From: Raja brachyura
Lineage: Eukaryota
Assembly (NCBI GenBank): GCA_963514005.1
Contig: OY740783.1
Span: 83,266,001 to 83,330,000 of the forward strand
DNA length: 64,000 bases
Direction of reading: 5' to 3'
Part shown: piece after piece, positions 777 through 56,173 of the stretch
How the letters are laid out: the number at the start of each line of letters is the position of its first letter
Position numbering within the stretch: position 1 is the first letter of the stretch
Notes under the pieces: model-generated
Databases searched by the model: none
Seen by the model: the letters and a program-made list of their open reading frames with translations, nothing else
What the model was told of the DNA's origin: nothing
Position numbers and translations under genes: made by a program

Positions 777-1005
777 GACACAAAATACTGGAGTAATTCA
801 ACGGGACAGGCAGTATCTCTGGAAAGAAGGAATGGGTGACGTTTTGGGTTGATACCCGTTCTTCAGACTGAGAGTCAGGGGAGAGGGAGACACAGAGATA
901 TGGAAGGGTGTGGTGTGACAATGAGTCATCAAAGGCGATGGACATCAAGGAAAATGTAGCACAGATCATTGTTAGCTCGGGGAAGGTGACAATGAAGCAT
1001 AACAA
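777..1005 (-). mobile_element. Penelope-derived terminal-repeat copy with degenerate hammerhead motif
   Basis: Reverse complement reads CTGAAGAACGGGTATCAACCCAAAACGTCACCCATTCC; similar to the 3' end of the element at 15882-16150. Confidence 0.8.
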
Positions 1006-2507
1006 ATGAAGGGATCATTGAATCAATTCAATGTATAAGATATGTTCATGGACAAACTATCAGAGAGGGTATACAGTGAATATGAATTTGAGCTTGAAAG
1101 TGGATTTAGTGTGCATGGATAAGGGGACAAGAATCAACAAGTAATGGACCAACAATCAAAGAGCCATATGATCAACAATCAGAAAGTGTGGACAACAGAA
1201 CAAAAAACAGACATTTGGCAAGAGTAACACGCAGAACAAATACACAATGTAAGAAAAATCAGCGGGACTATGAACAATTGAATAGCAACCAGAGAGAGGG
1301 CAATACAATAGCAGTCAAGGAGAACCATTAATACAGCAAATATGAGGCAGAATATATATCATGGAACAAACAGAGAGACTGAGCAATTGGGGTGCAAACA
1401 ATAAGAGAATCCACAACAAAACCCATTTCAGAGCACTCAGTGGCTTGAGCATTGTTCCTGGTGGCTAGCAATGTTACAGCAGACATTACAACAAACAGAC
1501 AGCGAGAAATGGGCCATCTGTGAGGGGACAGTGGAGCAACAATCCAAGAGTGGATAAAGAAGATAAAGGAGATAACGGGTAAAGGAATTAATCCAGATAG
1601 TATGTTACAAGAATCAGGAAGATGGTAGCAATCAGGGACATTATGAAATAGAACCAGGACCGAAAGGATTGTGGGGATCCAACAGAGAGACAGATTGGAC
1701 AATGTAAAGAGAGTGAGTAATTTAGTAAATAGGAGAGAGTGTATCACCAGAGACAATCAGAAAGGACAAAAGAGCAAAAGGCGGAACAACCAAGGCAGCA
1801 CAATAACTGAGTAATGGAACAAGAATGCCGCAAATTACATCGTGAAGCAGCAATTTGAGAGATGGTGCATAAGAACCACGAGAGAGAGTTTTAATGAAGC
1901 AACATTTGGAAAATAGGCAATGAATGGGAAAAGAGACAAGTATAAACGTCCAGCAAAATAGTAACAATCAGAATGATTGTGTAACGTAGCGATGGTGAGA
2001 AATAGCTGGCAATGAGGCAACAATCAGTAGTGGAGGCCAGTGGAACAACAGTAAAAAAAAGGACCAATGGGATCAATCATCTGAAATCAGGAAAAGGAGT
2101 AACTTGCAAGGATGAGACAATAGAGCAACAACCATGCAAGTGAACATCAAATGAACAATCAATGTACAGGCAACAGATGACATTCTATTAAATAAACAAA
2201 CATAGGAACAAACAACAGCAGAACATACCGAGAGTGTGCACACTTGTAAATGTTTGAAGAAATATTGAAATCAGCAATACTCGGAGACATTGAACAATGG
2301 AGCAACAAACAGAGCGCAACAGAGTGTAACACCAGGTAGAATTGAAGCAACAATCAGAGTGTGGATGATGGACCAGAGACCAAGCAGTTAAGCAACAATC
2401 AGTGAGTGTAGCCAATGGAACAGCAATTTTGAGGGAGTGGCCACAGTAAAACAGGCAGCTAGTTAGGGAGCAAAAAGTAGAGACTGGGCAGTGGAACAAA
2501 AATCAGC

Positions 2508-2740
2508 AATTTTCAGAGAACAGAGAGTTGTGAATCTGTGGATTTCTCTGCCATAGATGGCAGTGGAGGCCAATTCACTGGATGTTTTCAAGAGCTCTTA
2601 GGGCTAAAGGAACCAAGGGATATGGGGAAAAAGCAGGAATGGGGTACTGATTTTGGATGATCAGCCATGATCACATTGAATGGCGGTGCTGACGCGAAGA
2701 GCCGAATGGCCTACTCCTGCACCTATTTTCTATGTTTCTA
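2508..2740 (+). mobile_element. CR1-type LINE 3' fragment
   Basis: agagttgtgaatctgtgg...gcagtggaggcc...gaatggcctactcctgc, ending in a tttctatgtttctat tail; homologous to 26700-26945. Confidence 0.8.
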
Positions 2741-3884
2741 TTGATGTAAACAGTAAATGGAGTACCATTCGGAGGGTAGGTTGGTGCACCAACAAGCACA
2801 GACAGGCAGTAGAGCAGCAACCATATGTCAATGAATGAAGCAACAGGGAGAGTCCTAAATAACACTTTACAATCACGATCAAACAGTAACTGCCTCAGGC
2901 ACATCACAGAAGCATGATCATAAAATTTGATATGAGCCACAAATGAAGAAGATATTCAAAGACTTAGGTGTTATGAAGCTTTTTAAAACAAAGAGAGAAT
3001 TACTGAAGTGGTGAGGTTTGTAGTGAAATTCTGGAATTTCAATCCTAAACACATAAGGGCAAATTCAAAAGAATAAGCAGCTGAACAACAATCTGACATG
3101 TCAAGGAGGACCATATATCAGTTCAGTGAAATTGCAGTGCTTTTAGGCGAGAGCCAGAATCCTTTGCATACACATTATGTTTACTTTTGTAACAGTTGGA
3201 AGTTGAGTGGCTGGGGTAAAGGAACTCAGGTTAGAAATGCACAATATTTTCAGAGTGGTGCACTGTGCTGTTAGAGCATGTGTAACATTTTATTGCTGCT
3301 GCTTTCCTATTCCCAGGTGTTTATGCTGCGCTGCATTTAATAGTGAAGATTATACTGTTGTACCGCTCCTTGTAAAAATGTGAATATTTTGGTTTGTGTA
3401 ATTGCACGAAAACAAGTAAATTTAAGAAGGAGACAACTTTCTCCAATTGGAGAAAATGAGCAACATAAATGGACATAGGGGGGAGTTAAATCCGGAAGAA
3501 AATGAATGTTGATTCATAGTCTTGGTTAAGAACAATAGGACAGCCACAAAGAACACTGTAAAATATTAATTGACTATTTTTCATCATTCTGCAGTTCTGC
3601 TCTCAGAGGTAGAAAAATAAAGAACACTTCTTGGAGACAATTGTAGATAATCTCCTTCACAAACTAAGAAAATGTTCGAAGAGTAAACAAAAATCACTAA
3701 CATTTTTATATTTCTCATGATCATTCATTCTATGAACCTTTGAAAAAAAAGATGCAATTTTATAATTGTTCTGACAATACAGTATATGGTTTATACAGAG
3801 ATGTAAAATTAAACAGATGCCCCAGTTTCAGTATACTCAGCAGTGGCACAGGAGTAAGGAACTGAAGCAACTTGAGAATAAAAT

Positions 3885-3982
3885 GTGTGGGAAATGTGTC
3901 TCGATCCGAAGCGTCACCCATTCCTTCTCTCCAGAGATGCTTCCTGTCCGGCTCAGTTACTTCAGCATTTTGTGTCTACGTT
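3885..3982 (+). mobile_element. Short Penelope-derived repeat with 17-bp TSD
   Basis: cgatccgaagcgtcacccattccttctctccagagatgc...; flanked by CAACTTGAGAATAAAAT at 3868-3884 and 3983-3999. Confidence 0.85.
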
Positions 3983-5294
3983 CAACTTGAGAATAAAATT
4001 GTACCAAATAATTGGTGTTCTATTTAAGCATACAGTCTTACAAAAGCCTTTTAATCACTATCAAGTAGTGTGGCACCAATTTCAGAAAGAAAAGCCAGAT
4101 CAGCCCCAAACATTAGTACTATTTCTGTTCTCGCCTCACATTTACACTGAATATCTGTTTGTTTATTTCTTTACAGAGAAAGTGATTCAACTTCTTTCCA
4201 ATTATTAAGTATATTACATTGAAGGGACCAAAAAAAAGGTAGATTTCCAGAACCATTTAAATCACTGTTACTCACATTTGAACAGGCAATTGTGAATAGT
4301 GTAAGGCACAGTGAACAACAGACAGAAATTGCAGATCAGCACCATTCTGTAAATGCTATCTACAAACATACTGTCTTTAGATTTTGTCATATGCTTGGTT
4401 GGAATTACTACACAGTGGGCAGGAAATGTAAAGGGACATCCCCCACATGCCTTCCCAATTGATCCCTCCCAATAATTCCAAAGAGTATATTTAAAATTGC
4501 AGTGGAAAAGTCTGTTCATCTCCCCAATATTACTAAGGACAGAAGGACATGCATTAGGAAAATAATTTGTGAAGTGTGGCATTTTGCCATTACTACACTC
4601 TCTGCAGAGTGCAATTATTGGCTGCAGTCCGCAGTGTCAATTTAGATGGAGCTGAACGCAGTGGCAATTACTTTTTTTTTTAAATTTGCTACCACTTGAC
4701 ATACCCACTGAAGGAGCTGGTGCCATCCCACACCACCACAGGATGATAGCGCATTGCAGTGCACAGACCCTGCTGGCCCTCAGTTGTGATTCAAGATCTG
4801 CGGCTCTGTCATTTAGTGTAATAATGAATCAAATATGGAAATGGATGCAAGGAATTTCCTCTGAAACAATTGCGTTGCTTTGCAGCATCTGGCAATGAGT
4901 ATTACTTTGCTTAGATGGGGCATTTCTGTCACTAACAGGAAGATGACCCACTAAAAGAGGAAAGGAAGACCACGCAGTTTAAGCAGATTAGTCCCTGTTC
5001 ATGGCACTGGGGTTAGCTACTGGAAGATGCTCGAGGTTTAGGTGCCAGGAGATTCCTTATCCATTTCCTTTGATTTTTCTCTGCTATTAAATGTTAGGTC
5101 GTCTTCCTGGTGACATTTTCTGACTTCACTACTCCCTGGGAATGCACAGGATTAATTTGGGTTCTTTTAATTTAGGACTATTGGAATCTGATGTGGATGT
5201 CAAACAAAAGTAAAAGTCAAAAGAGAGTGCAGTGGCAAAATAACAAGTTTAATGCTTTCAAAGAGCAAGCACATGGTGGATCAAAAAACATCCT

Positions 5295-5422
5295 GTGTAG
5301 GAAGGAACTGCAGATACTGATTTCAACTGAAGATAAACACAAAAAGCTGAAGTAACTCAGTGGGACAGGCAGCATCTCTGGAGAAAAGGAATAGGTGATG
5401 TTTCGGGTCGAGACCCTTCTTC
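5295..5422 (-). mobile_element. Short Penelope-derived repeat (hammerhead core lacking C3)
   Basis: Reverse complement TTGAAGAAGGGTCTCGACCCGAAACATCACC; imperfect TSD tcaaaaaa(c)atcctgt on both sides. Confidence 0.8.
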
Positions 5423-5989
5423 AAAAAAATCCTGTAGTGTCTAACATATACACCTTCTCAACTTGTTCCTCAATCCCTATACTTTCCAGATCTATAACTA
5501 ATTGTCCCTTGAGCCCACTTGCACTGGTGTGCTACTGAGGTAATTAGCAATAATTACCCAATGGTCTATCACCCTATTGAGTGTGAAATTTCTCCCTAGC
5601 TTCCAAGTTCCTCATTTATAATCAGATCAGAAGATTGCTTTGGAATTGAAAAATAAACAGAAAATGCTGGATACGGGTCAAGCAGCATCCGTAGAGAAAG
5701 AAACAGAGTCAAAGTCTCAGGTCAAGGACCGTTCATCAGTTTATCTGAGCACTTCCAGCATTGTCTGCTTTCACTTCTCATTTTGATCCCTCATCTCTTA
5801 ATGTAGGATGTTTTTCATCATAATGTGCAATTTGTTTAATTTACTTTTTAAAGTTCCTTTTATAAATGTTGTAATCTTGTAGTGTTCCTTTTACAGTGTC
5901 TCCTTCATCTGGATTTTGTGGATTTTAGTTTCAAATTCCTCAACATAATACGTTCTTTCTCCTCAATGTTTTGCAGAGGGGTTGGTTTA

Positions 5990-6284: not shown

Positions 6285-6800
6285 CAGAACATAGAACAGT
6301 GCAGGGGTGCAGCACAGGAACAGGCCCTTCGACCCTTAATGGTTGTGCAGAATATGATGCCATTAAACTAATCTCCTCAGTCTGCACACAATTCATATTT
6401 CTCCCTTCCCTGCATATCCATGTGTCTCTTAAATGTCATTATTGAATCTGCCTTCACCACCATTCCAGGCAGTGTGTTCCAGGCACCCACCATACGATGT
6501 ATAAAAAAACTCGCCACACGCATTTCCTTTAAAATTTCCCTCTCTCACCTAAAAGCTGTACCCTCTCGTATTTGATTTGTTCATCCTGGGAAAAAGGATC
6601 CAAACGTCTTTCCTATTTATCTATACCTCTCATAATTGTATACTTCTATATGGTCTACTCTCTGCCTCCAACAGTCCAGAGAAAGCAATAAATATTTATC
6701 CAACTTCTCCTTACAGCTAATACCCTCTAATCCAGGCAGTATTCCGGTCAACCTCTACTGCACCCTCTGCAAAATCTCCACAACCTCCATGTAGCGAGGC
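6285..6800 (-). mobile_element. CR1-type LINE 3' fragment
   Basis: acatagaacagt...caggaacaggcccttcg...ttccaggcacccacca; homologous to 20248-20680. Confidence 0.75.
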
Positions 6801-9744: not shown

Positions 9745-9860
9745 TAGTCTGAAGAAGGGTCTTTTACAAAAGGTCTTTTACTTTTACCCGATACTTCACC
9801 CATTCCTTCTCTCCAGAGACGCTGCCTGTCCTGCTAAGTTACTCCAACATTTTGTGTCTG
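9745..9860 (+). mobile_element. Short Penelope-derived repeat, hammerhead stem II disrupted
   Basis: gtctgaagaagggtcttttac...acccgatacttcacccattccttctctccagaga. Confidence 0.75.
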
Positions 9861-10179
9861 ACTCAATTTGGCTAGTTTTTTTATTGATTGTAATGAAAAC
9901 TGAATTTATCCGGATACTCAGAACTCACTATTAGGGCTTCTATGGTTGAAACTCTAGCTCAGTATTATATGAGGATTGGCAGCACAGAAAGCTTTTCACT
10001 GTACCTCAGTACATGTGATAATAATAAGCTAAACTAAACTTAAACTTTGCAATGTTTGCGATTACAGAATCTACATTACAAATAACATTTCCCATTTTTT
10101 TATATCAGTGTCATTCTTCAAATATGAACCTATTACTTTGTGTTTTATTGTTTACACCAGTCCATTTTTAATTAGAAAG

Positions 10180-10510: not shown

Positions 10511-10560
10511 CATTTTGCGCTGTTTTCATGGGGAAACACAAGGAACTCCAGATTCTGATT

Positions 10561-10742
10561 TACAAAAAAATGCTGGTGTAACTCAATGGGGCAAGCCGCA
10601 TCTCTGGAGAACTTAGATAGGTGAAATTTCGAGTCAAGATCCTTCTTCAGTCTGAAGCAGAGACCTGACCCAAAACGTTGCCTATTTATGTGCTCCAGAG
10701 ATGCTGCCTGAAAAGCTGAGTTACTCCAGCACTTTGTGTGTT
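10561..10742. mobile_element. Head-to-head inverted pair of Penelope-derived repeats
   Basis: Arms mirror around cttcttcagtctgaag (~10643-10658). Confidence 0.8.
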
Positions 10743-10784: not shown

Positions 10785-10938
10785 TGTGATATGAAGTGCT
10801 GGAATAAGTCAGCGGGTCAAGCTGCATCTGTGAGGGAATTGGATAGGTGAGGTTTTAGGTTGGCACCTTTCTTCATACTGACACCAGCACTTTGTGTTTC
10901 ACTCAAGATTCCAGCATCTGTAGTTCCTCGTGTCTACG
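10785..10938. mobile_element. Second inverted-pair Penelope-derived repeat
   Basis: aagtgctggaataagtcagcgggtcaagctgcatctg...ctttcttcatactg, then ccagcactttgtg...gattccagcatctgtagttcc. Confidence 0.65.
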
Positions 10939-12654: not shown

Positions 12655-12862
12655 CAAAAGCAAAACACTGCAGAGGCTGGAATTCTGAATAAAAACAGAA
12701 CAGGCTTAAAATACAAAGCATGTCAGGCAGCATCTGCAGATAATTAATACTTTAGGTTGTTCATGGTTCTGAGGGAAGCTCATCAAGTTGAAATATTAAC
12801 TCTGTTTCCATCTTCATGGATGCTGATGAACTGATGAGCATTTCTAGCAGTATCTGTTTAAT
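12655..12862. mobile_element. Older inverted-pair Penelope-type repeat
   Basis: actgcagaggctggaattctgaat...caggcagcatctg, then ctgagggaagctcatcaagttgaaatattaactctg...gatgctg; related to 5655-5775 and 46170-46345. Confidence 0.55.
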
Positions 12863-13255: not shown

Positions 13256-14299
13256 TCATGTCCCATGACTGTGCAGATTTTTACTCAGGGAGGGATTTAA
13301 TGGGTAGCCACCCTCCTCTATAGCTCCAGTCATTTCTCATTGGAACTAGATTAGCTGCACTTAGCCAAAATGGATATTGTGCTTCTCCTGACCTTGAAGC
13401 GCAGGGAGTCGGGGGTGGGATGTTAAAGGGGTGGGGGAGAGGGGGACACACACTCATGTCCATTTGTTAGTGACCTTCACTACAAATACCAAACAGCAGC
13501 AATGGACAGAATCACTCACTTTCTAGGTTCATTCTTGGCGAAGAATGGCAACTTCAGGGAAATGCAATGAGTGAAAAGTAACTGTTGGATTACTTGTGCA
13601 AAACACTAAGAGCTGAAGTATCTCAGCAGGTCAGCCAGAATCTGTAGAAGGAATGGATAGGCAACGTTTTGGGTCAGGACCCAATTACCTATTCCACATT
13701 ACCCCATTCTCCCACCGCACTGGTCCGAACCCCACCCACAAACCTTTCTCACCAATACTCAATGACTTGCAGATAAGAAAATTGGAGATAATTGGTGGTT
13801 GGGGGGGGGGGGGAGAGATTTCTGCAAGAAATAGCCATATCCATTATTTTTATACTTCTCTAGTTAGAATTCCTGACCTAACCAACAGCGATTAAACACA
13901 TACTAGTCTGACAGAGATAATGTTAGATCATTGCCAAACTTCATAAGCAGTAAACTTTATTCCTGTACATTCGTTGCTCTTAAATCACCTTTGTTATGGC
14001 TTTTGGTGGCCAAGTGCATCAGCCATAGCTTAATTTATTTTCAGGATGTGAGGGTTATTGGCAAGATGAGAATTTGGCGCTCAACCCTACTTGTCTTTGA
14101 AGAGGGTAAATCTTCTTGAATGGCTTCAATCTTTATGGTGATGATGAATGTTGGATGGAGAAATTCAGGTTTAAAACCTAGCAATGACGAAAGAACAGTG
14201 ATATATTTGCAAATCAGGACAATGTGTGTCATTTGGAAAGAAACCTACAGTTCCTAATAGTAGTGTATTCATCTCTGAATATTAGCTTGTGGCTTTGTA

Positions 14300-14620: not shown

Positions 14621-15146
14621 AATCCTCTCTGTTTTTGAATATAGATAATGATGTGGTTCATGGTAAAAGAAACCCCTCAACGTTTATTTGGAATGGTATT
14701 AAATGGTGAAAACAGAAAAAAAAAAGAAGTTCACGACCAAAACAGCAGCAGCATGTGTACGAGATATTATGCAGGTTTCCTAGACCCCTTCCATTCAATT
14801 TAAGCAAAATTAAACTTTTACATTGTCACTGTGAAATTGAATGTTTATTAAAAATGTGTTTAAGATATTTCATAATTATGTATGCAATCTATTTTCGTTA
14901 CCTAATGGGAGGCGACTTTATTGGGAGACATGAGGCCTGTAGTTAGAATGCTATTAAAAAAATATGTACAAGACTTTCTTACAGATTGAATGGAACAATA
15001 CACCTTATTTGGATTATACAGCACAATGACATATAAAAAAATATTCAATAGACAAACAGCCTTTACCTGAAATACTTAAGTGAGGAGTTATTTTGGAGTA
15101 ATCATATATTACATTTCAAATAGTACAACGCCAATCATTACGATAT

Positions 15147-15331
15147 CGAAACACAAAGTGCTAGAATATCTCAGCGGGTCAGGCAGCATCTGTGGAGGGA
15201 TAGGACAGGCGACGTTTCATCAGTGTGATGAAGAATTCCGGCCCGAAACGTCACCCTGGAGACGCTGCCCGACTCGTTGTGTTAGTTACTTGTGTAACTC
15301 CAAGATTTCAGCAGCTGCAATTTCTCACATC
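15147..15331. mobile_element. Inverted-pair Penelope-derived repeat with 13-bp TSD
   Basis: Flanked by ATCATTACGATAT at 15134-15146 and 15332-15344; contains gacgtttc and cccgaaacgtc in opposite orientations. Confidence 0.8.
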
Positions 15332-15881
15332 ATCATTACGATATGCAGTGGCTGCACACACCGCACAACACAATACCCAAATAAGGCCCATAACGTAGAA
15401 ATATATAAAGGTTGCAAGGAGGAAAATATCACAAACAACAAGCGCACCATAAAATGATAACCATTCTGGTAAGAATTGAAACTGATCCATATTTCATCTT
15501 CCAACCCTCATTTTTGAACATTTCAATAACGGGGATCACAGCTCCAGGTGTCCGTCCTGCGATTGCTGTCACCCGATTAACTCCTGCTCCACAGCAGTTT
15601 TTCTATTTGCAGGTAATACAAACAGTGTCACAATGAATGTGCCCAGACATACACCTCGACAATGACAAAATACTTAGTGAACTTCACGGACTACAAAATC
15701 TCATACAGAGCACAAACTGCCAATAAATGAAGGTGGAAGTTGAGGAAATGCAGTTGTTTTTGCATTTCAACAGTAAAATAAAATAAATTGATAAAGCAAT
15801 ATATCTAGAAAATTCAGATTTCATTCTTGGTCCAATAGACAGCCAATCGTCAGAAATATCACCAGGTTTACTAAACCAAGT

Positions 15882-17496
15882 GTGTAAGAAGGAAATGCAG
15901 ATGATGATTTAAATCGAAGATAGACACAAAGGCTGGAGTAACGGGACAGGTAACATCTCTGGAGAGAAGGAATGGGTAACTTTTCGGGTCGAGAGCCTTC
16001 TTCAGACTGGTTAGGGATAAGAAAAACGTGAGATATAGACGGTGATGTGGAGAGATAAAGAAGAATGAATGAAAGATATGCAAAAAAGTAACGATGATAA
16101 AGGAAACATTGTAAGCTGTTTGTAGTGTGAAAATGAGAAGCTAGTGTGACTTTGGTGGGGGAGGGATAGAGAGAGAGGGAATGCCAGGGCGACCTGAAGT
16201 GAAAGAAATCAATATTCATACCACTGGGCTGTAAGTTACCCAAGCAAAATATGAGATGCTGTTCCTCCAATTTGCGTTTAGCCTCACTTGACAATGGAGG
16301 AGACCGAGGACAGAACGGTCTGTGTAGGAATGGGAAGGAGAATCCGTCAACCGGGAGATCAGGTTGGTTCACGAGGGCTGAGCGGAGGTGATCCACGAAA
16401 TGATTGAACAATGGATACAGTAGATGAGGTTGGAGGACGTGCAAGTGAACCTCCGCCTAACCTGAAAGGACTGTTGAGGTCCCTAGACAGAGTCGTGTGG
16501 GAGGAGGTATAGCGACAGGTGTTGCATCTTCTGCGGTTGCAGGGGAAGGTACCTGGGGAGGGGGTAGTTTGGGTTGGAAGGGATTGCGGAGGGAACTGCA
16601 GAAGGCAGAAAGGGGTGGAGATGGGAAAATGTGGCTAGTGGTGTGATCCCGTTGGAAGTGGCGGAAATTTCGGAGGAATATGTGTTGAATGCGATGGCTG
16701 ATGGGGTGGAAGATAAGGACTGGGGGACTGTCTCTGTTACCACTAGAGGGAGGGGGAGCAAGGGCGGAGCTCCGTGGAGACATGAGTGAGGGCCTCATAT
16801 ATGATGGGAGAGGGGAACCCCCAGTACATAAAGAATTAGGACATCTCGGATGTTCTTGTATGGAACACCTCATCTTGGGCGCAGATGTGGCATAGACGGA
16901 GTAGGGGATAGAGTCTTTGCAGGAAGCAGGGTGGGAAGAAGTGGAGTCAGGGGTTTTATTACAAACAATTGTAACAAGACTATTGACATCAATCAATAGT
17001 CTTTCTCGTGATGGAGACTGTGAGATCAAGAAAGGGGAGTGAGGTGTCGGAGATGGTCCAAGTAAATTTGAGTGCAGGATGAAAATTGGTGGTGAAGTTG
17101 ATGAAGTCCATCAATGTAACAGGGACAAAGATAGAGCATGCAGTATTCAATGTAACAGTGATAGAGTTCGGGGATGGGCCAGTGTATGCCTGGAACAGGG
17201 ATCGCTCAACGTACCCAACAAAGAGGCAGGCACAGCTGGGGCCCATGCGGGTGCCCAAAGCTACGCCTTGGCCTTGGAGGACGTGAGACGAGTCAAAGGA
17301 GAAGTTGTTGAGGGTGACGAACAGCTCCACAAGGTGGAGTAGAGTGTTATCAGAGAGACCACATCACCATCTATATCTCTCGTTTCCCTTATTCCTAACC
17401 AATCTGCAAAACGGTTTTGAATCAAAACGTCACCCATTCCTTCTCTCCAGAGATGCTGCCTGTTTTGCCGAGTTACTCCAGTTTGTTGTGTCTATC
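15882..17496 (-). mobile_element. 5'-truncated Penelope-like element (RT + GIY-YIG C-terminal remnants) with inverted 5' terminal repeat
   Basis: ORF 16989-17330 NNFSFDSSHVLQGQGVALGTRMGPSCACLFVG...LPFLDL matches Penelope-type RT motifs. ORF 15821-16444 KRKLEEQHLIFCLGNLQPSGMNIDF matches the endonuclease C-terminus. Terminal repeat at 15882-16150; inverted copy at 17359-17496. Flanks ACTAAACCAAGT (15870-15881) and ACTAAACTAAGT (17497-17508). Frameshifted. Confidence 0.88.
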
Positions 17497-17859
17497 ACTA
17501 AACTAAGTAATTGGCGATGTGTAATCAAGAAAATGAAGGAATGTGGAATGAAGATTAAAAAAGTGCTGTCAGTGTTGCGGGAATGTCAGATCTGCTTTCT
17601 ATTAATTTCTGGAATTTACAAAAGTCAGTAAAGAATGCGGTAGAGACGGTGAGAATAGGACAGATGATGAGTGGGGGCAGAGAGTTTGGGAGCGGGTAAG
17701 TGACGCAGAGACCCAGGAGTGGGATAGAGGTCGGCCGGAGATCTGTGAGTGCAGCACTGTGAGTGCAGCACTGCGGGATCTGCAAGCCATTGCAGGAGGC
17801 GCCTGATATTACAGGGGAGCGCGATATTGCAAGGTATAGCAGGGGTGCGCGATATTGCA

Positions 17860-20680: not shown

Positions 20681-21169
20681 AGACCATATGGGGAATACAG
20701 AAAGTAGAACTTAGAACAAAAAACAAACTGCTAAAATAACTCAGTGGATCAAGCAACATCTATGGAGGCAAAGGAATGGCCACTGTTCTGAGTTGAGATT
20801 CTGTATCAGGACTAGGAGTGTCGAGGGTAGATAGCCATGTACAATGTGAAAGGGGGAGATGATAGGTGGACCCAGGCGTGATAAATAATTAGGAAGATGG
20901 AGCTGATCACCAAGGATCCTTGTAGAACCACTCTGGTTGCAGACCTTCAGGCAGAACAACACCCACCACTACTTTATGTCTTCTATGACCAAGTCTTTTG
21001 ACTATGGACTGAAGTTTGGGTTTTTGTTTATAAATTATAAGAAATTTGAACATTTATTTTCACTTAATTATAGTTTCACAATATCAACATCATCTGCACA
21101 GATGTTAGTCCAATGAATTTTGATTAATTGATATAGTAGAACGTCTACCCGAAGAAAAGTCAGAGAGAC

Positions 21170-21865: not shown

Positions 21866-21978
21866 CGTGTAGGAAAGAACTGCAAATGCTGGTTTAAATC
21901 AAAGGTAGACACAAAATGCTGGAGTTACTCAGGCATAATCTCTGGAGAAAAAGAATGGATGACGTTTCTTCAGACTGG
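21866..21978 (-). mobile_element. Short Penelope-derived repeat, hammerhead stem II deleted
   Basis: Reverse complement CAGTCTGAAGAAACGTCATCCATTC; tail matches 15882-15990. Confidence 0.8.
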
Positions 21979-22144
21979 ATCCATCTTTGCTGACTTCCCA
22001 ACAAGGGTTGCGTTTCAAAGACAGGGATCATACAAATCAATTTGCCACACTTGGCATGATCATAATTAATTCCCGACTAGGACTGTGAATATTCAACATT
22101 AGGGGAGAAAGGAAGTAATTCTATAGAAGAAGCGGAAACCACTT

Positions 22145-31230: not shown

Positions 31231-31736
31231 AATATTTAAGGAAATTTGGATGAGCAGAGCTGATCTGAGTATTGGTGTGAATGGACCTACATTCCCGAGA
31301 ATATACGTGAATGCTATGCTATATTGAAACAGATGAGAAGAGGGGCTGGCAGGATAGATCCCAATCAAATGGCGTCGATTGGTGGTAGACTCATTCCATC
31401 CACACCCGCTTGACTAATGGACACTGTCTGTTAAAGTGTGTGTATGTGGGTGCTTATACACTGGGATATATGGCATGTGTTATGCATATCTCTATATGTG
31501 TATATTAAACCATATGTATTGCTGCAATATACTTATCGCTCAGTAATTTTCCGAACAAGGAAATTACAAGTGAATCATTTGCACAGTGGCCACTTACAGG
31601 ACACTTGAGGTTAAAGACGCTCTTGTTTAATGTTTGTTGTGCTGATGTCACCGTCATGATAATACATGATAATCATGATCTAGCATTGGTATTATCACTC
31701 TTATTTTTAAAAAAAGGCAACAGAATGCAATGATCA

Positions 31737-31841
31737 AAACACAAAGTGGTGGAGGAACACCGCGGGTCCGCCAGCATCTGTGGAGGGAATTAATAAACGA
31801 CATCTCGTGTCAGGGCCCTTCTTCAGACGCATCTTCTTCAG
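31737..31841 (-). mobile_element. Short Penelope-derived repeat with 12-bp TSD
   Basis: Flanked by ATGCAATGATCA at 31725-31736 and 31842-31853. Confidence 0.8.
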
Positions 31842-33332
31842 ATGCAATGATCACTTTAAAACATATATTTTATTCTGAAATAATAGCACATAATTGAAGC
31901 GAAGCACTTCCAGATAAAGAACAGGGGAATATTCTGCCTGAAATACATGGAATGATCACAGTTTAACATGTTTTGCCATCATACATCAATATTGTTATCT
32001 TTATTATATAGGATTGTTTCAGTACTTCAATGTTATAATGATTTAATACTTTAAAACATTTTATATTAACGTTTCTATAGCTCTCCTATTTTTGCTTTGC
32101 AAAATTTGCTTTGCGACTTAGTCGGCTGGATATTTTAATCTTTGCTTATACATATCTAACACAATCACCAGTGACCAAAGTCGTGGCGAAGAGGGGACAG
32201 GGATAGATTTGTGTAATAAATAGGGGGAAGCCACGGACAGAGTGACGTGAAAAGCAGAGACTTAAATTAACCAAGCCATACACCGGGATCTAGACACAAG
32301 ATGTTCGCAAGAGTATAGAAAATAGGTTGGAAATCCATTCAGTGACAGGAAAAGTCTTGTTACACTATACCCGTCGACATGCCAAAATGTTAAAGGAGAG
32401 ATGGGCGTATGTACTAGTTCTAGCTGATATATATTAAAACTGTGTTCGTAACATTAATAGCCTTCAAATCCTTGTCTGTGGAGGGCTCGGAACATTTCGG
32501 AGGGGTGTGATGCAATTTTTAGAGCAAAATTGCCCGCCCCACTCCCATCGTCCTTTTTTGTGTGAAGAAGGTATTGTCCACTTAAAGTGATTCTGTAAAC
32601 TCTTTTGCCTGGTCACGGTTTTGATGAAAGAGAAAACATGGGAACAAAAATAACCTTAGTGTTTGTGGTAGGAGTATACACAAATAAACCTTATGTTTCT
32701 CAAAACTTCAACTGATCATTGACATTTAAGTTGTAAAGGTGACGGCAGGACAAATTTTCTGACATTAAGATTTAGTTGGTACATTTTATATACTGGTTTA
32801 ATTAAAATAATAAATAATAAAATTTGTTATTTTGGGAAACATGTTATGCAAGTTAACTGTATGGAGGACTGCCTCTGGCAAATCATTGGCAAATTAAAAA
32901 ATGGATTTCATTCTTTACATCAAATGAGAAATAATTTAAATACGGGAGAGGGACAAAATCGGATTTACTTTTCCTTAGGAAAAAGTACTACGATCACAAT
33001 TAACTACTCAACCTCAAGTTATAAGATAATTTAATTGTGCTGCAAGAAAGGTTTAGACCAAGACGACATGTTACCAATGGTTTCATTCATCAGAAGGCAC
33101 ATTAAAAGTTTCCTGAAGAATCAGCACGTATCGCACTCCACCAATGACCACAGTACTGCCTTGTGGATTAACGTTATGCATTGTAAATTTCCGGCACAAC
33201 CCCACACCTACAGATCCCAGCCATGGAACAAGTTGCAAATATAAGCTCTCGTTGCCAGGGTGAATGGGAGAACACCAGGATCTCGCTGAAAATAACGTTT
33301 TGATTCCCTCATTCTTATCCTTGACATATCCC

Positions 33333-33590: not shown

Positions 33591-35530
33591 TGTGCACGTC
33601 GCCTTTAACTAAGTAATCGTTCAGAACCTTAACCCCAATTGCTAGTTGTTCTTTTAGTAATTGTTGATTGCGATATTCTCCTTCCATAAATCTGACACAG
33701 TGGTAGTCCAGTTAAAGAAGATAAAAGTATAGGATAAAATCTAATGAATAAAGAAATTGAAATATTTAATTAGTTTAAATTTAAATGGGTCAAAAAAGCA
33801 TGGGAATCTGATGCCATGGGTAAGCATTAGCGTACATAATGTGAAACAGCAACATATATACAATGCTAAAATTATGTCCATTGTTATTAGGTTTCAATCT
33901 TTTGATTGCCTTTTACTTTTGAAAAATATGTTTAAGGACTATAAACATATTCCCCTTTCATTTCTCTCTTCCCGCCCTATTTCTCTTTACTAGTGTTATT
34001 TTCCCATGGCAATTTTAGCCATACACGTCCTCATCCACCAAATCAGGTCACTTCCCGATAGTTTTTTTATTTCTGTATGTGGGTTATGTTTTGTTAATAT
34101 TATTCGATTTTGCATCGTGTGAGTTTGGCTGGGCTGCTGGCAGCAACATGGCGGTAATCTGGTCTTTGGCCCAATCGTGTGCATTAATTTAGAAGAGTAA
34201 GCCCGAACATCCACTGTCAGCATTCTGGCCCTTGTCCTGATCCTGGTGATGGGCTAGATTCCAGTAGAAGGATGAAAAGGGTCACAGTAGCAAAACAAAA
34301 CAAGGGTACAGATCGAGAAACTCATGGAAAAGACAGGACATGGTAGAAGGGGGTGGGGTGGGGGTGGGGAGAGAGACTGGGATATAAAAATAACCAGCCC
34401 ACGCTTCCAACAGATTGCCCGCATGAATAAAGATTGGCAAATACTTGAACCTATTCAGCCAAAACAGGGGGTGTGGAGTTATCAATAGCCTGAAGTCAAG
34501 GCTTGCAAAGAAGTTACTTTGATTTCCACATTTTTTATGTTCATTTCGGTCATGGACAGCAAAGTAAGTGAACCTCCACAAGGGGCTGAAGCACGTCCAG
34601 AAGACTAAAGGCTGGCTTGAAAGACAATTCACCAAACAGAGACACCTTCAGGATGCTCCTGTTAACGGTTTACTACAACTGCTTTCCAGAACCAAGTCAG
34701 GTGCCTGTTACAAGCTCCGGCCTCAGTATACTGCTCCCTGTGAGCGGGAGCCGGGCACAGCCGGGCCAGGACATACACATAATCACTTCCGGCAAAAAAC
34801 GCCCATTCTTGTATAAACGGGAGGATTGAGCGGGCGAAACACTGCACTCTTTTCATCACTCTTACCCCCTTCTTTTCTCCGATAAACACAAGAACGTCGT
34901 ATATTTCTTTCTGCGTTTCCTTCTCTCTGCCTGAACGACCCTCTCTGCGTTTTTTCTGTGTTCCTGGATCTCTTTCTTTTTGTCTGTCTGTCTGCCGCTC
35001 CACCCCAGCCCCCCCCCCCCCCCCCCCCCCCCACCCCCCTCTCTCCCTCTCTCTCTCCCTCTCTCGTTCAAGGTCAGATTTATTTTACATGGAGCACTGT
35101 CCAAGGACATGTTTCCGCATTACTGATTTCAGCGCAGTGTTAATCTGAGATCCCTGTTGTGTAATGCGAGAGTGTGGAAGAAGATGTCCTTTGAAACTAC
35201 AGCAATGTACATAGACCCCAAAAGAAAATAAATTGCCTCTGAATTAGTCCCATATTTATCTAGCTGGGTATTTAGGAATCAAAATTGTCTTTATGAATCC
35301 CTTGAAAGTCCGGAAAAAAAAGATCTTAGACATGTCTTGTGTTCTGTACACCTACGAGTGGATGGGACGCGTATGGACTAACTGTTGGAGAAGCCGAAAA
35401 GCGGAACTTTCCAAATGAATATTGAAAAATGCTTTGTTTGCTTACTAAAGTGATTATGTACAGTAGCCTTACCATTAAGTAATAGATCAATAAATCGCCA
35501 AATATTTCAGACAAACTATCACAAAATTAT

Positions 35531-35626
35531 TTGTCTGAAGAAGGGTCTCGACCCGAAACGTCGCCTATTCCTTCGCTCCATAGATGCTGCATCACCCGCT
35601 GAGTTTCTCCAGCATTTTTGTCAACC
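35531..35626 (+). mobile_element. Short Penelope-derived repeat with best-preserved hammerhead motif and 11-bp TSD
   Basis: Flanked by CACAAAATTAT at 35520-35530 and 35627-35637. Confidence 0.88.
35535..35562 (+). ncRNA. Minimal type I hammerhead ribozyme-like motif
   Basis: CTGAAGA-A-GGGTC-TC-GACCC-GAAAC-GTC: CUGANGA and GAAA cores, stem II, palindromic ACGT in place of stem III, GUC triplet. Stem I is weak; activity unproven. Confidence 0.6.
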
Positions 35627-38562
35627 CACAAAATTATGAACCTTCTTCTAAACAGACATCACGAGGCAAAGATACTCTCATATCAATTGCTCCTATTCCT
35701 ACAAGATGCGAATGGAGTGGATCTTCCGATATGTTTTAAGCAGACTAGAATTGAATGCAATAGGATCGTGATGGTCTTACCACACCGTTAAGGGAATAAA
35801 TGTATGTAATAGAGTGGGGGAGAAAATGACTGGTGGCAACTATGGACTGCTGGTTGTGCTTAAAGCTTAGTCAGTGGGGACCTGAATGCTAATTCCTGTA
35901 TCACTGCGCTCCTCACCCTCCACACTCTTTGCTTCCTCCTGGACATTTAATTTATCTTTCTACGAGCGGTTGCTGCTGAGACAGATCTGAAGCCAACAGA
36001 TTTCTATTATTGCTCAGGGTCTGGTGGGAAGAAGTTAGCGGTGGCGAGGAAATGGGAAAGTGGCGCGTATTCAGAGTTTTGTGGTGGAACAAATTATTCC
36101 TCCTTGTAGTTAGAACGTGAAACCTTCGCTAAAAACATATCCGAATTTCGCCCTCACAGCAGACGATAGCTTTCAGTTAATTGTTAAATTAATTGGTTAA
36201 TGACAGTCTTCCTCTACTCGTGTCAAATTTATTAAGATTTATAACTCAAATGGAGCCGTTAGCAAATGTAAGCGTTGTAGTGGTCCGTTAATTTATTCCA
36301 GCGCCTGCCTATATCAACTCACCGAATTTTCATAACTTACACATAAGAAACGTTCTGCCTTGATCTGTAACCTGGTCTAAAAAGTGTATCATTATTCTCT
36401 TGGTCAACTTTCAACTTGGTAAGGGAGTCAAATCAACTGCACGTCAATAGGTGCGTTGGAAATTGTGCAAGAACAAAGCAAATAAGCAAAAAGGGGGATG
36501 CACAGTACAATGAGAACTGCGATCCGGTTTAATCCAAGGAGAGAGACCTGATTTATCCAAGTTTGATTAACTATCGCAGGTGGCCTGGTTCCAACCGTAG
36601 CATCAACTCCACGGAGCTTTTCAGATCCCAGGGCCGCCAAAAGCAACTGGCGCAGATTTCTCCAACATTTCGTTTAAATTATCTGATTATTGGCCACATT
36701 ACGATTTTGTAATTTTGTACTTTAAAATCGAAACTCGTTTTCGGATTTCCAAAGAGTCAATTATTTTTTAGGACAATATTTTCTCACCGGGACCTGTGAT
36801 AAATCATTCACTCTTGTCCTGGCCGAACAAAATCAATGGGAGCCCGCAGTTTTCAAATCCCACCAAAATACAATGGGGCTCGTGCAAATGCAAATGGAAG
36901 TAAGAATCAAGGTGCTAGAGTTAAAACAAAGTTTCCAATGATCACTGACCCGGGCTATGGCAGGGCATCAATAAAAAAAAGAGGTCCATCTCCCGCTTGT
37001 GCTTTGATAAATTGACCTGACTTGGGTAATGACGTCCCATCTGTACCCCCGGCCCAGCGTTTATGCACAAGCAATTGCTATTTCCAATCGCAGTAATATA
37101 AGATAATAGAAGGATTTAATCTGTTCAAAACCCACCACCTTACACAATATCTGCAATAATATTTCTCCACTATAGTATGTGATGGTTACCTCTCTCACCC
37201 CACAGTACAAACGGTGGAACTAGATGAATGTTATTCCCTAACATTAATAGCTTAGCAAATAATTAATAAAGGAACTTCTTACTTTAACATGAAATTGACG
37301 ATTTATTTTACAAAACGCAACATCATCAAAATATATGAAATATGAAGGCAAATACATTTAATTAGCCCGAGTGTAAGGAACAATACACGGTGTTTTGCTG
37401 AATTCGCTTTTTATCTCGAATTTGTGTGAGTTTGTTTTTCCTCTGTGTAAATAAGTAATGTTTAGCTTGTTGGTTTCATGGCGGGGTGAGAGATGCATGT
37501 CCTGGAGCCGATGTGATCAGATGTCCATGATTGTGGATGTTCGCATACCACCAGCCATAATTTATTTTTGCTCCATATATCGAGGCAAAAAGCCTTGTTG
37601 GAAATGTTCGTCTCTATGTATGGATATGATATTGGATGTTTATGTACCCTCCTGCACCTGGATTCGACGCCCTCCTCTTTTGTACCAGGCAGCATGAATG
37701 CGAGTCCGTCTAAATACTGCCAGGGGTCAGGGTTGCGGTTTGAAGTGAGAGAGTAGAATGAGGAGGTAGAATGTGCTCTCGCTGTCACCCTGAAGAGTCT
37801 CTGTTTAAAAAAAAAAGTAACAGCAGACACTGACACGGAACAGCAGCCGTGTGTATAACCACTACCCTGCACATTAATGTGTTAACTGTGTCTATGCGTT
37901 TCCTAGGCATTTCTAATATTTATCTTTGTACCTACCAGCTATTTACTGTCTGTTCTGAGGGCTGACATATATTAAAGGATTATTTTGCTTTCTTATAACC
38001 TAGGGATTTCTTCTGTATTATGCATGGCTTTTACTTGCTGGGGTTTTAGCGAATCGTTTCCTGCTATTCTCTGATATCTGATTCTCTTAATTTAAGGATT
38101 ACCTTGTTGTTATATCCTTTCTGATGGATTACCTGCAGGAAAGGCTTTGTCTGCGATATGTCGCTCTTGGATTATTTCTGCTTCTTATATCTGTAATGTT
38201 AGGTTTGAATTACTTCTGATTCTCTTGCCTCTAACACTATTTCTCATTATTACTTTCTAACCCATAAGATTGTTTCTATTATTACTATTCCACTGAACAC
38301 ATTGCCCGATGATGAACGTCTTCCTCCTTGCGCTATAATTTCTAATTTATTTAGGGTTTTCGCTTCCCGCTCGGAATTCGGCTTTGCACACCAATGTATC
38401 ATTTCTATCCATTTCCAAATTCACACTCCATTTGGATCATTTTTTCAGGGTTGACTTTACTCTAAAATGAAATTGTTGCAGAGCTGTAAATATCACTTTG
38501 GACCCCCATTTGGTTCTAGGCAGACACCGTGTTTGACATTTTTCTTTCGTCTTGGTTCTTAC

Positions 38563-38728
38563 CTGCCCAGTATCTTGCTAACGCAGCCGTGGCTCACTCT
38601 GAGCTGTCTGGAGATATCACAGGGTCTCACTCCTTGGTGGGCCAGTTCCACAATTCGCTGCCGGACAACATCTGGGAGAGGGCGGCCATTCACAAACACA
38701 CCCCCAAGCTGATTCACCCCGCCATGCC
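38563..38728 (-). CDS. pax5: Pax5 exon 2, paired domain N-terminal half
   Basis: [55 protein letters not shown]. tatacag acceptor, gtaaga donor, 166 nt as in the Pax2/5/8 family. Confidence 0.98.
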
Positions 38729-41115
38729 CTGTATACAATGCACAAAACAGAGAGAGAAAGAAAAGAAACACTGCAGCTATACGATAGGCACTCAGTCTGT
38801 CTCTCCCCGGCAGAATTGTCGGCAATGTACGGGCCAGCAAAAAATATGGGGAGAGGAGGTCAGAACCCCTTGCTTTATACGGTCGCAGCAAAATACGATT
38901 GGGATGGGGTGGGGGCCGAGTCGGGTGGTCAACGGTTATGGAATATAAGATATGGGCTCGAGAAGTTAGGAGACGGTCGGTGGGGTGAGCAACCCGCGGC
39001 ATTTAGTTAAGAAGGGGAACAGTTCCAGGGAGGCAAGGACGCGGCAGCTTTCTGGGACACCCCTCAGATCACGTCCACACGCTCTCAACCAACAACTGCC
39101 CCTCAGGTACACGCCATTGGATTATAAATGTAATTAAATATAGGCCAAGACTATGTACAGCTACTGTTGGCAGCTTTGAAAATGCACAGGAAGGATAATT
39201 GATATGAGGCTGAGAAACGCGAGATGTTCACTGAAAGTGAAAATGACCCACTGAATTCGGAACAGAAAACGCGCCCCTTTCGATGAAACTTCAGCTTCCT
39301 GTGGCTCGGAGATCTGTGGACAGATATTAGTCCCGATCACAGTCTTCTGGGAACAAGACATGTTCCATTTGAGTAATCGGTTGCAGAATTGTGAACGGTT
39401 GGATTCGCTCAGCGAATGTAACCGAATATTTAATATTTACCATTGGGTTAGAGAGGTGGCTCACAGTACGTTTTTATCCTCAGGCAATAGAACATTTCTG
39501 CTGCTTTGTAGAATGGTCAATGAAATTGTAAATTCTGATTCGGGCCGATAATTTTTTTTAAACTCTATTCCAATATGGATTCAAAGGAATTAAAATACGT
39601 CCCTAAGTGGTAATAAATGAAAATCGGCAACAAAATTTTTTTCGGGAAAACTTGGAGTGTTTGACATAAATCCTCCCATATAAACCTCGGGGATTGTTTT
39701 TATTAGTCTGTGTCACAGCCGGAAGGAAGGAAAGTTATAACAAGAATGGATTGATACCTGCAGCAGAGGTCTAATCTACACCGGGAGGTTCTTAGTCTCT
39801 TTCGTTGCTGCCTTTACTGGATTTAGCATTAAATGAAATTAACGCTTTGCTAATGAGTTAAAAATATGTATTACTTCCGTTTCGTTTTCAGTGAGATAGT
39901 ACCTCAACTCAGTCTCTGGAACACAAAAATTCCCACTTCCAAATTCGCAATTTCTTTTTTTTTTCCAAAAAATAATCATCCGATTGCACTCCGGATCGGA
40001 AAATTCCCTGTCAGTTCCCAGCTTGTGTCCAAGATTAACGCTTATTTTAAAACAGCATACAAGAAGCTGTAGTTACTTCCTATTGCGAACGGACCGTATT
40101 AAATATGTAATTCAGTCTTGAAATAGATTAACACTGAATTTAATTCTAAAATACACGACTTCGCTAACAAGATCTCTTCCTAAAAATCAATAATATTTGT
40201 TTCGATCTTTAAAGTTAGTGAATGCGCAGTTGCTCCACATCACTGTGTTGTAACAATTTTAAATCGATATATTTTGTTTTGTCGCCTGAGATATAAACTC
40301 AACCCTCTTTTACACTCTGTAAACCTGGCCAGAGGTGGCATTCGTAAAGTAGGTCTAGATAGACCCTGGTACAATATGATTAGTTCGAGTTGATAAAGCA
40401 TCTGTTTACAAGCTGTAGGTATAATAACACTTAACACACCGTGATAGGATGTGTCATTTCATATAACATCGACCAAATGGACAAGTCCCAGCCAATTCTG
40501 TCAACCAAAACAAACGTGCTGGAGATTTCGGTGTCGCCCAACTCCATCAATGAAAATTTCACTATTTTATCTCAGCTTATTATTCGCCACATACAACTGT
40601 AAACGTAATTTAGATAATGCGGAACGAAACCGTTAGGCGTCGAACCTATTTATTGCCTTGGTTAATACTCTTTTACAACTTACTGGCAACTAAATCATTT
40701 CATTTGGTTCAGGAATGTTAATTATCTTCTACTAAAGCCACTGACGTTCACGATAAACATTGTTCATCACAAAAAGCAACAATACCGTGTCTTATTTGAG
40801 TAAAGGTATATATAATTAAGATAATATTATAATTGGGTCCTCGAATGTTGCTGTTTTCTATTTAATTATGAGAATTAAAGAAATCGATTAATTAACTCTC
40901 TTTTAATTCGGCAAATCAGGAATGATAGTAAAATTAGACGTGCACGTGTGAGTCGGTTGTGATTTTCAGCAAAGCACGTTCCCTTTCAAGGACTTCGCGC
41001 TGCTCCGGGTCCAGGGACATCTGAACATCGGTCTATGAAACCGAGTGCTCCAGCACTCCTCACACACTCCCACCAGGAACCGCCACACGAGCCGGCGAAG
41101 GAGCTGCCTACTTAC

Positions 41116-45981: not shown

Positions 45982-46894
45982 GTCTAGATCATTGAATTGC
46001 AAGGTCAATAAGTTATAGCATTAGAATAGTAGGCCATTGGGTTGTTCAATACGACCATGGCTGTTACTCTGCTCCAATGCAATATTCCCGCTCTCTTCTC
46101 ATATCCTTTGATGCCTTTTGCGTCCGGCTACTATCCCATCTCCCCACAAACCCATGGCAAACAAAAAGCAAAACAAATAGAGGTGCTGAAAATCCACAAC
46201 AGACCAAGACAGCATCTCCAGAGAGAGAGAGACAGGGTTAACATTATCAATTTAATGACTTGTAGGTCGTTGACCTGAAACGTTAACTCTGCTTTTTTCA
46301 CCGCAGTGACTGCGTACCCTGACTGTTTCCAACATTTCTGTTTTTTGAACCCCTGACAATTCCAAACACTCATCTTCAAACACAGCATTCATATTGCGTC
46401 TTAGCGGGGTGTGTGGGGGACTGTTTGTGGTTTTAGCCCGGAAAGGCGGCTGTCAGGCTCAGACTCCAGCTCAACGAGGGGCTGTCAGATCAGTCTGCCT
46501 TCCCAACACCCCAAACAAGAGATGTTTTATTCGACAATATGAACAACCTCGTTTGTGTAATGGATAGAAGTCAAATTGTGTGGTCAATTTGCATCTTCAT
46601 TCTGTGGCAGTGGTAACCATGCGTGTGCATTGCCGGGTTAAAGGAAAAATCGGAAGAAACTGAGGTCATAAATATTGTATATTATCGAATCATCTTAAAG
46701 GTCGTGGTTGGCATGCTTAGTGGTAAAGTGGGGCATAAATTGGGAGTCACGTTGGGCATCTAGTTCCAGAAGATACGAAAGCTAGAATTGTGCTCTTGTC
46801 TGAGACACATTAAGCACAGAGGAAGTATAACTCCCGCCGAGTTATTTTCAAACCGCCGTTTAGGATCATTTTGACTTCAGAAACTTTTCATTCA

Positions 46895-46969
46895 GACCCA
46901 AAAAGCTGGAGTAACAGCGGTACAGGCAGTATCCCTGGAGAGAAGGAATGGGTGACGTTTCGGGTCGAG
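46895..46969 (-). mobile_element. Penelope-derived repeat running into an assembly gap
   Basis: Reverse complement CTCGACCCGAAACGTCACCCATTCC; the 5' half of the motif is in the Ns. Confidence 0.8.
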
Positions 46970-52901: not shown

Positions 52902-52944
52902 TGTGTGTGTGTGTATGTGTGTGTGTATGTGTGCGTGTGTGTGT
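52902..52944. repeat. Interrupted (TG)n/(CA)n microsatellite inside the exon 1A leader
   Basis: Seen directly. Confidence 0.95.
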
Positions 52945-53022
52945 TGTCGGCTCCGGATAATTTGACTCTTCCGCTACCCCGTCGCGTCTTTGGTGCTGCC
53001 CATTGATCCGAAACTAAACGTT

Positions 53023-53097
53023 TTAGGTGGAGAAAAGGCTCTGAACAAACCGTGAAATGATTAAGGAACTAAAAGAGCTCGCTACATGTGAGATCAT
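53023..53097 (-). other. Upstream ORF in exon 1A leader, 24 aa MISHVASSFSSLIISRFVQSLFST*
   Basis: Read directly: ATG at 53097 to TAA at 53025-53023. Translation is not demonstrated. Confidence 0.6.
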
Positions 53098-55613: not shown

Positions 55614-55778
55614 NNNNNNNNNNNNNNNNNNNNNNNNNNNNNNNNNNNNNNNNNNNNNNNNNNNNNNNNNNNNNNNNNNNNNNNNNNNNNNNNNNNNNNN
55701 NNNNNNNNNNNNNNNNNNNNNNNNNNNNNNNNNNNNNNNNNNNNNNNNNNNNNNNNNNNNNNNNNNNNNNNNNNNNNN
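55614..55778. other. Assembly gap (N run)
   Basis: 165 N. Confidence 1.
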
Positions 55779-56102
55779 ACTTTTACATTTCTTCAATGCA
55801 GTAGTTTGTAGTTTACAACTTTCATACACTTCAATTTATTTTCATAACTTTCAATATCCAAGTTGACTAAATCTAAATGCTCATAATTAGCCATGTTATA
55901 GTGTTCGATAAAACCATACGGATTCATCAGCAGTCCCGGTTCTTCCTTCGGTTGTGTGATATCGGTTAACACTTCCGCAATAAACCTCCAGCTAACAATA
56001 AAAGGTTATGAAAATATATTTAGCTGACATTTATTTCAAATATTTTGATGTACGCACATTTCTCCAGTTATTTGGTAAAATTAAAAAACGAAGTGACGGA
56101 GC

Positions 56103-56173
56103 AAACGTCGCCTATTCCTTCGCTCCAAAGATGCTGCCTCACCCGCTGAGTTTCTCCAGCATTTTTGTCTACC
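56103..56173 (+). mobile_element. 5'-truncated Penelope-derived repeat
   Basis: aaacgtcgcctattccttcgctcca...gagtttctccagcatttttgtc, nearly identical to 35556-35622. Confidence 0.85.

Follow-up and report, generated by a model that had tools for sequence, protein, structure and literature searches.

The window analyzed here is a 64,000-nucleotide stretch of the 2.7-Gb genome of Raja brachyura (contig OY740783.1, positions 83,266,001 to 83,330,000). It surrounds a paired-box exon (Pfam PAX) and carries many dispersed copies of a short repeat with a hammerhead ribozyme motif. These copies belong to a real and abundant family of a known kind, the terminal stubs of Penelope-like elements (PLEs). 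Positions within the repeat unit are numbered from the C of CUGA (position 0), and the expected hammerhead cut falls after +27. A unit profile built from young copies matched the window 22 times (E ≤ 0.05) and its reversed sequence not once; with each of three head-to-head pairs and the two ends of one PLE counted once, these matches represent 18 insertions. The initial annotation had proposed that the repeats inserted as separate events, and this view is supported; four of the insertions have exact duplications of their own, of 17, 13, 12, and 11 bp. Fourteen of the 22 matches start within -6 to 0, where it should be noted that profile ends are fuzzy in old copies and that the copy at 46969 runs into masked bases. 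Sixteen of the 17 loci listed previously were matched by the profile, but the one at 46170 gave only weak local matches in a 600-bp search (46210-46337; E 0.0019 and 0.028), which possibly represent an old inverted pair. Of 148 young copies, 97 have their 3' end at +84 to +102 and 51 at +120 to +128, which is the optional tail pattern of PLEs; these forms are termed untailed and tailed, respectively.

Three untailed solo units in the window have exact flanking duplications. The unit at 35520-35637 (+) starts at -2, is flanked by an 11-bp duplication (35520/35627), and contains at 35535 the sole window occurrence of an exact 28-mer that is found with at most 8 mismatches at 10 places. The unit at 3868-3999 (+) has a decayed core and a 17-bp duplication (3868/3983), and the unit at 31725-31853 (-) has a 12-bp duplication (31725/31842) and a 5' filler that repeats the unit's first bases. 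The 13-bp duplication (15134/15332) flanks a head-to-head pair at 15134-15344, made up of an untailed arm (15218-15149) and a tailed arm (15220-15325). A second pair, at 10539-10741, is joined at a TCAG-W-CTGA near-palindrome, with its tailed arm on the minus strand and its untailed arm on the plus strand, and a third, at 10791-10929, consists of an untailed minus-strand arm and a truncated, tailed plus-strand arm. All three loci described before as single units at 10561, 10785, and 15147 are therefore inverted pairs. Likewise, the supposed standalone copy at 777 is actually the 3' end of a longer PLE fragment at 773-995 (-), which comprises 3' untranslated region (UTR) and an untailed unit, has a 12-bp one-mismatch duplication, and matches the PLE 3' region over 995-773 at 67%. 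A solo tailed unit at 5284-5435 (-) has a 13-bp one-mismatch duplication flanking 5294-5426. Finally, a 5'-truncated, frameshifted PLE insertion at 15870-17508 (-) retains a remnant of the reverse transcriptase (RT) and GIY-YIG endonuclease and the 3' UTR. It has a tailed unit (16011-15881) and an inverted untailed unit (17398-17493), and the whole of 15881-17493 is flanked by a 12-bp one-mismatch duplication. It is an older, broken relative, with 44% tblastn identity to the intact frame of a second element, L189.

Young copies that reach further upstream encode RT and GIY-YIG domains. L189 is a tandem element with an open 1,203-codon frame directly behind the unit's tail, in which the first ATG is at +163; the frame matches Pfam RVT_1 (E 4.7e-4) and GIY-YIG (E 1.7e-3) weakly, both under the curated cut-offs. 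Because this frame begins right behind the unit, the unit is placed at both ends of the element, between the 3' UTR and the open reading frame (ORF), and is the hammerhead-bearing part of the pseudo-long terminal repeat (pseudo-LTR). The earlier derivation of the family from a PLE terminal repeat was thus correct. The single ORF with RT and C-terminal GIY-YIG in L189, the tandem or partial-tandem pseudo-LTRs, the inverted 5' copy, and the optional 30-40-bp tail are the features of endonuclease-positive (EN+) PLEs. Moreover, a C-x4-C-x2-C linker between RT and GIY-YIG can be read in the L189 translation, and a CX2-5CxxC linker between RT and EN defines Neptune and Nematis (PMC8557442). By this linker motif, rather than by a tree, the parent is assigned as a Neptune/Nematis-type EN+ PLE. 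Published Neptune and Nematis elements (PMC8557442, PMC3846280) have in common with it the order of RT, C-x4-C-x2-C linker, and GIY-YIG, the pseudo-LTR, frequent 5' truncation, the inverted 5' copy, solo pseudo-LTRs, a palindromic head-to-head junction, and a 30-40-bp tail that is often at one end only. By contrast, stubs here outnumber ORF-bearing copies by about 50:1 (50,608 cores compared to 956 tail-ORF junctions), and one sharp 5' edge and a one-tail rule (82 of 94 pairs) have been measured here, as described below. Two other arrangements were seen among the parent elements. In L189, a head-to-head pair with a 17-bp duplication was inserted in the element's own 3' UTR and later duplicated along with it, so that each of the two tandem units now has one (2165-2420 and 6375-6630), and at G000:C18:46361222-46374042 at least four equal-scoring PLE units stand in tandem with a period of 3,965 bp.

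The description of the family as very abundant is upheld by 50,608 exact occurrences of the 28-mer genome-wide, compared to none of its reversed control. The copy number of the family is tenfold or more above the 4,000-9,000 copies of coelacanth and Xenopus in PMC4209133. Unselected DNA contained 43 profile matches in 164 kb, which implies several hundred thousand copies genome-wide as a rough figure from one region. In addition, 12,828 genome matches have 11 UTR bases preceding the 24-nt core, 1,880 show the perfect head-to-head junction (many pairs being counted twice), and about 956 copies have the tail-ORF junction. When 97 of the first 100 exact cores were classified by hand, 33 extended into PLE UTR, 25 had an inverted partner, and 39 were otherwise, 2 of these 39 having a direct partner.

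The 5' ends of the units are not random, as the initial annotation had anticipated. The bystander copies in 642 kb, of which 43 have ≥ 90% identity, were used for this comparison. Of the 29 unselected young copies that reach +4 at the core, 20 end at -7 to +4 (5.8% per nt), compared to 12 of 41 ending in +5 to +57 (0.55% per nt) and 5 of 9 in -8 to -232 (0.25% per nt; p = 1e-17). Duplications of at least 9 bp (9-17 bp) were present within 40 nt in 70 of 132 non-inverted edge copies, where the shuffled-flank control gave 49 of 1352 (3.6%) at ≥ 7 bp. Since these 70 copies carry flanking duplications, we conclude that the 5' edge is real and not a homology artefact, even though the UTR of a few edge copies marks them as members of other families. 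PLE families whose UTRs differ (91-232 nt) become alike only from YCAGT onward, and the unit with the same -4 to -2 edge occurs in three other organisms (four runs of assembled contigs only, their kind guessed, which show no RNA starts). Filler bases are found in 47 of the 70 duplication-bearing edge copies, and among the 28 fillers of at least 4 nt, 13 contain at least 5 nt copied from the beginning of the unit itself (mean of 6.9 in shuffles, p = 0.002), as would be expected if a polymerase stuttered where its template ends or is blocked. At the edge, the last filler base is G in 26 of 47 fillers, compared to 1 of 14 at upstream truncations (p = 0.0016); the genome-wide counts are 3,188 for GAGT, 3,285 for A/T-AGT, and 9,709 for the G-rich B-GT class. 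These genome-wide counts looked like a signature of the cap, but stuttered self-copies account for part of it, and a cap-derived G is no more than a possible reading. Neither end of the unit lies at the hammerhead cut: none of the 43 unselected young copies starts at +26 to +31, only 7 of 81 in-unit ends in the whole sample fall at +27 to +31, with no peak, and the 3' ends lie 65 or 100 nt beyond the cut. These results do not support the earlier description of the family as ribozyme-bounded.

Head-to-head pairs combine one tailed and one untailed arm in 82 of 94 classifiable pairs, compared to 41% expected from unpaired copies; 7 of the remaining pairs are untailed on both sides and 5 are tailed on both (9 unclassifiable pairs were dropped, and a few loci may be listed twice). 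The same combination was found in 21 of 22 rows of perfect-junction pairs, most flanked by an 11-18-bp duplication, and in 4 of 4 pairs in the window. There are 0-4 base differences between the two arms, and in nine rows variants, some of them rare, recur in both. The in vitro work on the Anolis Poseidon element PAc (PMC11167929) offers a parallel, in that RT starts at either of two neighboring internal sites, between which the tail lies, and cleavage and extension take place on both strands of the target. In other respects PAc differs, since its ORF starts inside the hammerhead, whereas here it starts at +163, after the tail. We think it probable that within a single event each target strand uses a different one of the two RT start sites. 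As separate observations, the 151 nt between the inverted arms of L018/L019 resemble, by eye, the RT gene of another long interspersed nuclear element (LINE) and may reflect a template jump, and several inverted pairs (L058, L073, L079, L141) have the same downstream flank and therefore probably lie inside a larger, itself duplicated repeat.

The hammerhead motif contains all the minimal-hammerhead core bases, the extra base at 9/10.1, and a palindromic stem III. When 650 copies were grouped into 8 clusters, the core was the same in all of them except in loop II, where alone the cluster majorities vary; such constancy would be as fitting for a promoter or a protein site as for a ribozyme. The extra A after CUGANGA, to which the initial annotation had drawn attention, is present, and an extra base before stem II is already listed as conserved in PLE minimal hammerheads (PMC4209133). 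Metazoan PLE minimal hammerheads in that paper also have in common with the unit the CUGANGA box, the G10.1-C11.1 pair, and a palindromic 15.2-16.2 without loop 3, and most are likewise dispersed singles tied to truncated PLEs. Stem II is 4 bp here, and stem I has only 2 bp, compared to the typical 4-5 bp and to 2 bp in Drosophila virilis (PMC4209133). Compensatory change was not seen at the one stem II pair checked genome-wide (10.2/11.2): among the first 100 of 602 double changes, counted by hand, 59 were A-A, 17 A-U, 5 U-A, 2 U-G, and 17 other mismatches, so that 24 keep pairing. The covariation in stem II for which the initial annotation had called thus did not appear, and its suggested Rfam scan gave no matches at the gathering score in the window; in three loci, even a threshold of E ≤ 10 brought up no hammerhead family. 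An unconstrained cofold prediction did not yield an active dimer. In PAc, the hammerhead is dispensable for insertion, and the passages of PMC11167929 used here report no RNA reads ending at the cut site. In our reading, the hammerhead motif would be a passenger and its cleavage putative. The recurrent A-A variant suggests that a small subfamily has spread with a weakened stem. An HDV-like fold starting at -2 was also considered and dropped by eye, as it had neither P3 pairing nor a catalytic C strand.

We propose that each repeat is a copy of the PLE terminal domain, 95 or 130 bases long and inserted with its own duplication, and that RT likely starts at one of two internal sites and likely runs off before the core (probability roughly 0.6). 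Since RT would thus start at internal sites and run off the RNA 5' end ahead of the core, ribozyme cutting would set neither end. That the copies are stubs made by PLEs rather than cleavage-bounded retrozymes is very probable; an RNA 5' end as the specific cause of the edge is slightly more likely than not. The scheme builds on the position of the unit shown above, at both ends of the autonomous element, between the 3' UTR and the ORF. RNAs would start at about -3/-2 in the initiator-like YCAGT, both in intact elements and in many 3' fragments that keep the upstream UTR. As inferred from PMC11167929 and the duplications, GIY-YIG would nick both target strands 9-18 bp apart; one nick would then prime at about +93 and the other at about +128, and each complementary DNA (cDNA) would stop at the RNA end, often with stutter. 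If both cDNAs survived, they would anneal at the TCAG-W-CTGA near-palindrome and yield a one-tail head-to-head pair, and if one survived, a solo would result. Solos would lose the upstream promoter bases and mostly be dead ends. The fixed edges would likely record the copying of the parent element into both strands of a DNA break.

The initial annotation implied instead that hammerhead cleavage frees a short or circular RNA that is reinserted by the PLE enzyme. The nearly invariant core and the roughly 956 tail-ORF junction copies are in keeping with such a cycle, and animal non-LTR retrozymes (PMC7229834; bioRxiv 10.64898/2026.07.22.740005) are likewise non-coding, derived from pseudo-LTRs, equipped with a type I hammerhead, and PLE-dependent. 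However, those retrozymes yield circles and consist of units repeated head to tail, each with its own ribozyme, whereas the copies here mostly stand alone, are inverted, or simply form the 3' end of a PLE, and none of their ends coincides with the cut. Because head-to-tail units between two ribozymes are required, the retrozyme label fails for most copies. Most of 30 tail-ORF loci examined run about 45-155 nt past the tail and then jump to another unit, often at short homologies; several (L215-217, L234) are 190-330-nt head-to-tail repeats above unit length. These tandem mini-elements, a small class, resemble the animal retrozymes and meet their structural definition (bioRxiv 10.64898/2026.07.22.740005, PMC7229834), so that the term retrozyme-like applies to this minority; even so, their junctions are varied microhomology jumps and not the cut site. 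Together with the absent peak at the cut, the 2-bp stem I, the prevalence of A-A over paired changes, and the lack of an Rfam match, these features make the cleavage model very improbable. Scarcely more probable is the view that solos are a self-propagating lineage resembling short interspersed nuclear elements (SINEs), with an internal promoter and a borrowed PLE enzyme. It draws on the frequency of fixed-start solos, which matches that of long copies (39 vs 33 of 97), and on an initiator-like start with a putative downstream promoter element (DPE)-like word 28 nt on. Both motifs are reported in Drosophila Penelope, whose promoter is placed in the pseudo-LTR (PMC2377424). A separate lineage should differ from its autonomous partner, but no solo-specific variants were found at five diagnostic positions (limited power): the top haplotype accounts for 71 of 119 solos and 60 of 95 long copies, and the second for 22 and 13. 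Inverted copies carry the same haplotypes, so we see no separate solo lineage, and solos show no recurrent upstream flank. Long captured exons upstream of solos were considered and rejected, with a count of 7 of 62 distant duplications, mostly mini-elements.

In another model, the template could be a long RNA on which RT is halted at -2 by a bound protein or by a helix of the unit's first bases with its tail, or, as a variant, a protein-protected RNA trimmed to -2 by an exonuclease. In the young subfamily, -2 to +10 is predicted to pair with the tail end in a helix that closes exactly at -2/+127 (P 0.9-0.99 for +1 to +9), and in 38 of 40 ORF-bearing copies an internal unit was read through. 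Yet the helix is not conserved, since one older cluster has it only in part and another lacks it, the fold z-score is only -1.49, and the duplex ranks 44 of 3952 positions. Moreover, tailed arms end at the same edge though their synthesis would open the helix, and mini-elements also end there after a template jump. We consider such a block unlikely, at perhaps one chance in four or somewhat below. For the pairs only, the inverted arm might arise by self-priming of one cDNA at the palindrome rather than from the second target strand, as proposed for rotifer PLEs (PMC3846280). Junctions on the near-palindrome, the 1,880 perfect-junction matches, and the closely similar arms all fit this route. 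It would nevertheless require that copying halt precisely at +93, the position where solos and long copies, too, most often end, and many pairs with 100-250 nt of other sequence between the arms retain the asymmetry; about one chance in four seems reasonable for it. The least probable candidate, to which we give hardly any weight, is that CAG|T at -1 is a splice acceptor that sets the edge. A pyrimidine tract and CAG occur in all families, the 3' UTRs of older families (L301, L327, L114, and others) look intron-like with a donor-like GT at the stop codon, and a Drosophila Penelope intron ends at helix I (PMC4209133). This candidate was rejected, as 0 of 53 copies with an ORF end upstream join the core directly, and duplications usually abut the edge, which leaves no room for an exon.

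Several points weigh against the run-off reading that we prefer. Only 2 of the 40 best ORF-bearing 5' regions start at the edge, and the other 38 continue upstream beyond it; this ranking favors longer matches, but a simple start at -3 still predicts more edge starts. The enrichment of G in fillers is not clean evidence of a cap, because the sample was chosen by a flank motif and stuttered self-copies end in G. The likeness of YCAGT to an initiator, and of the word downstream to a DPE, is putative. In vitro, PAc showed no difference in start site between strands in the passages of PMC11167929 used here, whereas the genomic pairs imply opposite sites per event, and the variants common to both arms fit fold-back copying equally well. 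A more elaborate version of our proposal is speculative and, on present evidence, doubtful: a Penelope RT dimer would make two copies of a single short capped RNA, each from its own fixed start site and primed by its own strand of a staggered break, and this RNA would be an abundant promoter-proximal transcript whose tail folds back and locks the hammerhead off. If true, one mechanism would account for the tail of PLEs, for their inverted 5' copy, and for SINE-sized stubs in the hundreds of thousands, and the 190-330-nt tandem mini-elements would be retrozymes being born.

The integration of PLEs, with the one-sided tails and inverted ends that result, has been called nontrivial (PMC8557442), and its later steps were left unvalidated in PMC11167929. 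In this young, very abundant family, insertions that are nearly identical number in the thousands and at least one copy has an open frame; the one-site-per-strand and RNA-end models are therefore directly testable. The initial annotation's overall interpretation is partly supported, and the family is ordinary as a new ribozyme element; what makes it useful is that its fixed 5' edge and its one-tail rule offer ways to test how PLEs integrate. Scans of such genomes for hammerhead motifs will overcount retrozymes. We found no description of the family, the fixed 5' edge, or a one-tail count in the literature searched, though alignments in supplements or Repbase/Dfam entries may already contain the family.

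The other insertions in the window are mostly old. No duplication was found where one was looked for at an old unit at 5636-5740 (-), a unit with an internal rearrangement that starts at -3 (9746-9869, +), and an untailed unit truncated at +21 (56103-56173, +). Profile matches identified an old 3' part of a tailed unit (12667-12737, -), a tailed unit with stem II deleted (21868-21980, -), and a unit whose 5' part is masked (46878-46969, -); two more old units start near +6 (13580-13684, -) and, untailed, at 0 (20720-20809, -). A further profile match, absent from the earlier list, is an old tailed unit at 28691-28812 (-). Decayed PLE endonuclease fragments lie at 28991-29305 and 29958-30035 (-), and this unit may be their 3' end. 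The open frame with the paired-box exon is at 38559-39002 (-; Pfam PAX E 4e-31) and reads like Pax2/5/8. Frameshifted LINE endonuclease and RT frames at 61504-63648 (+) belong to what we take to be a CR1-like element.

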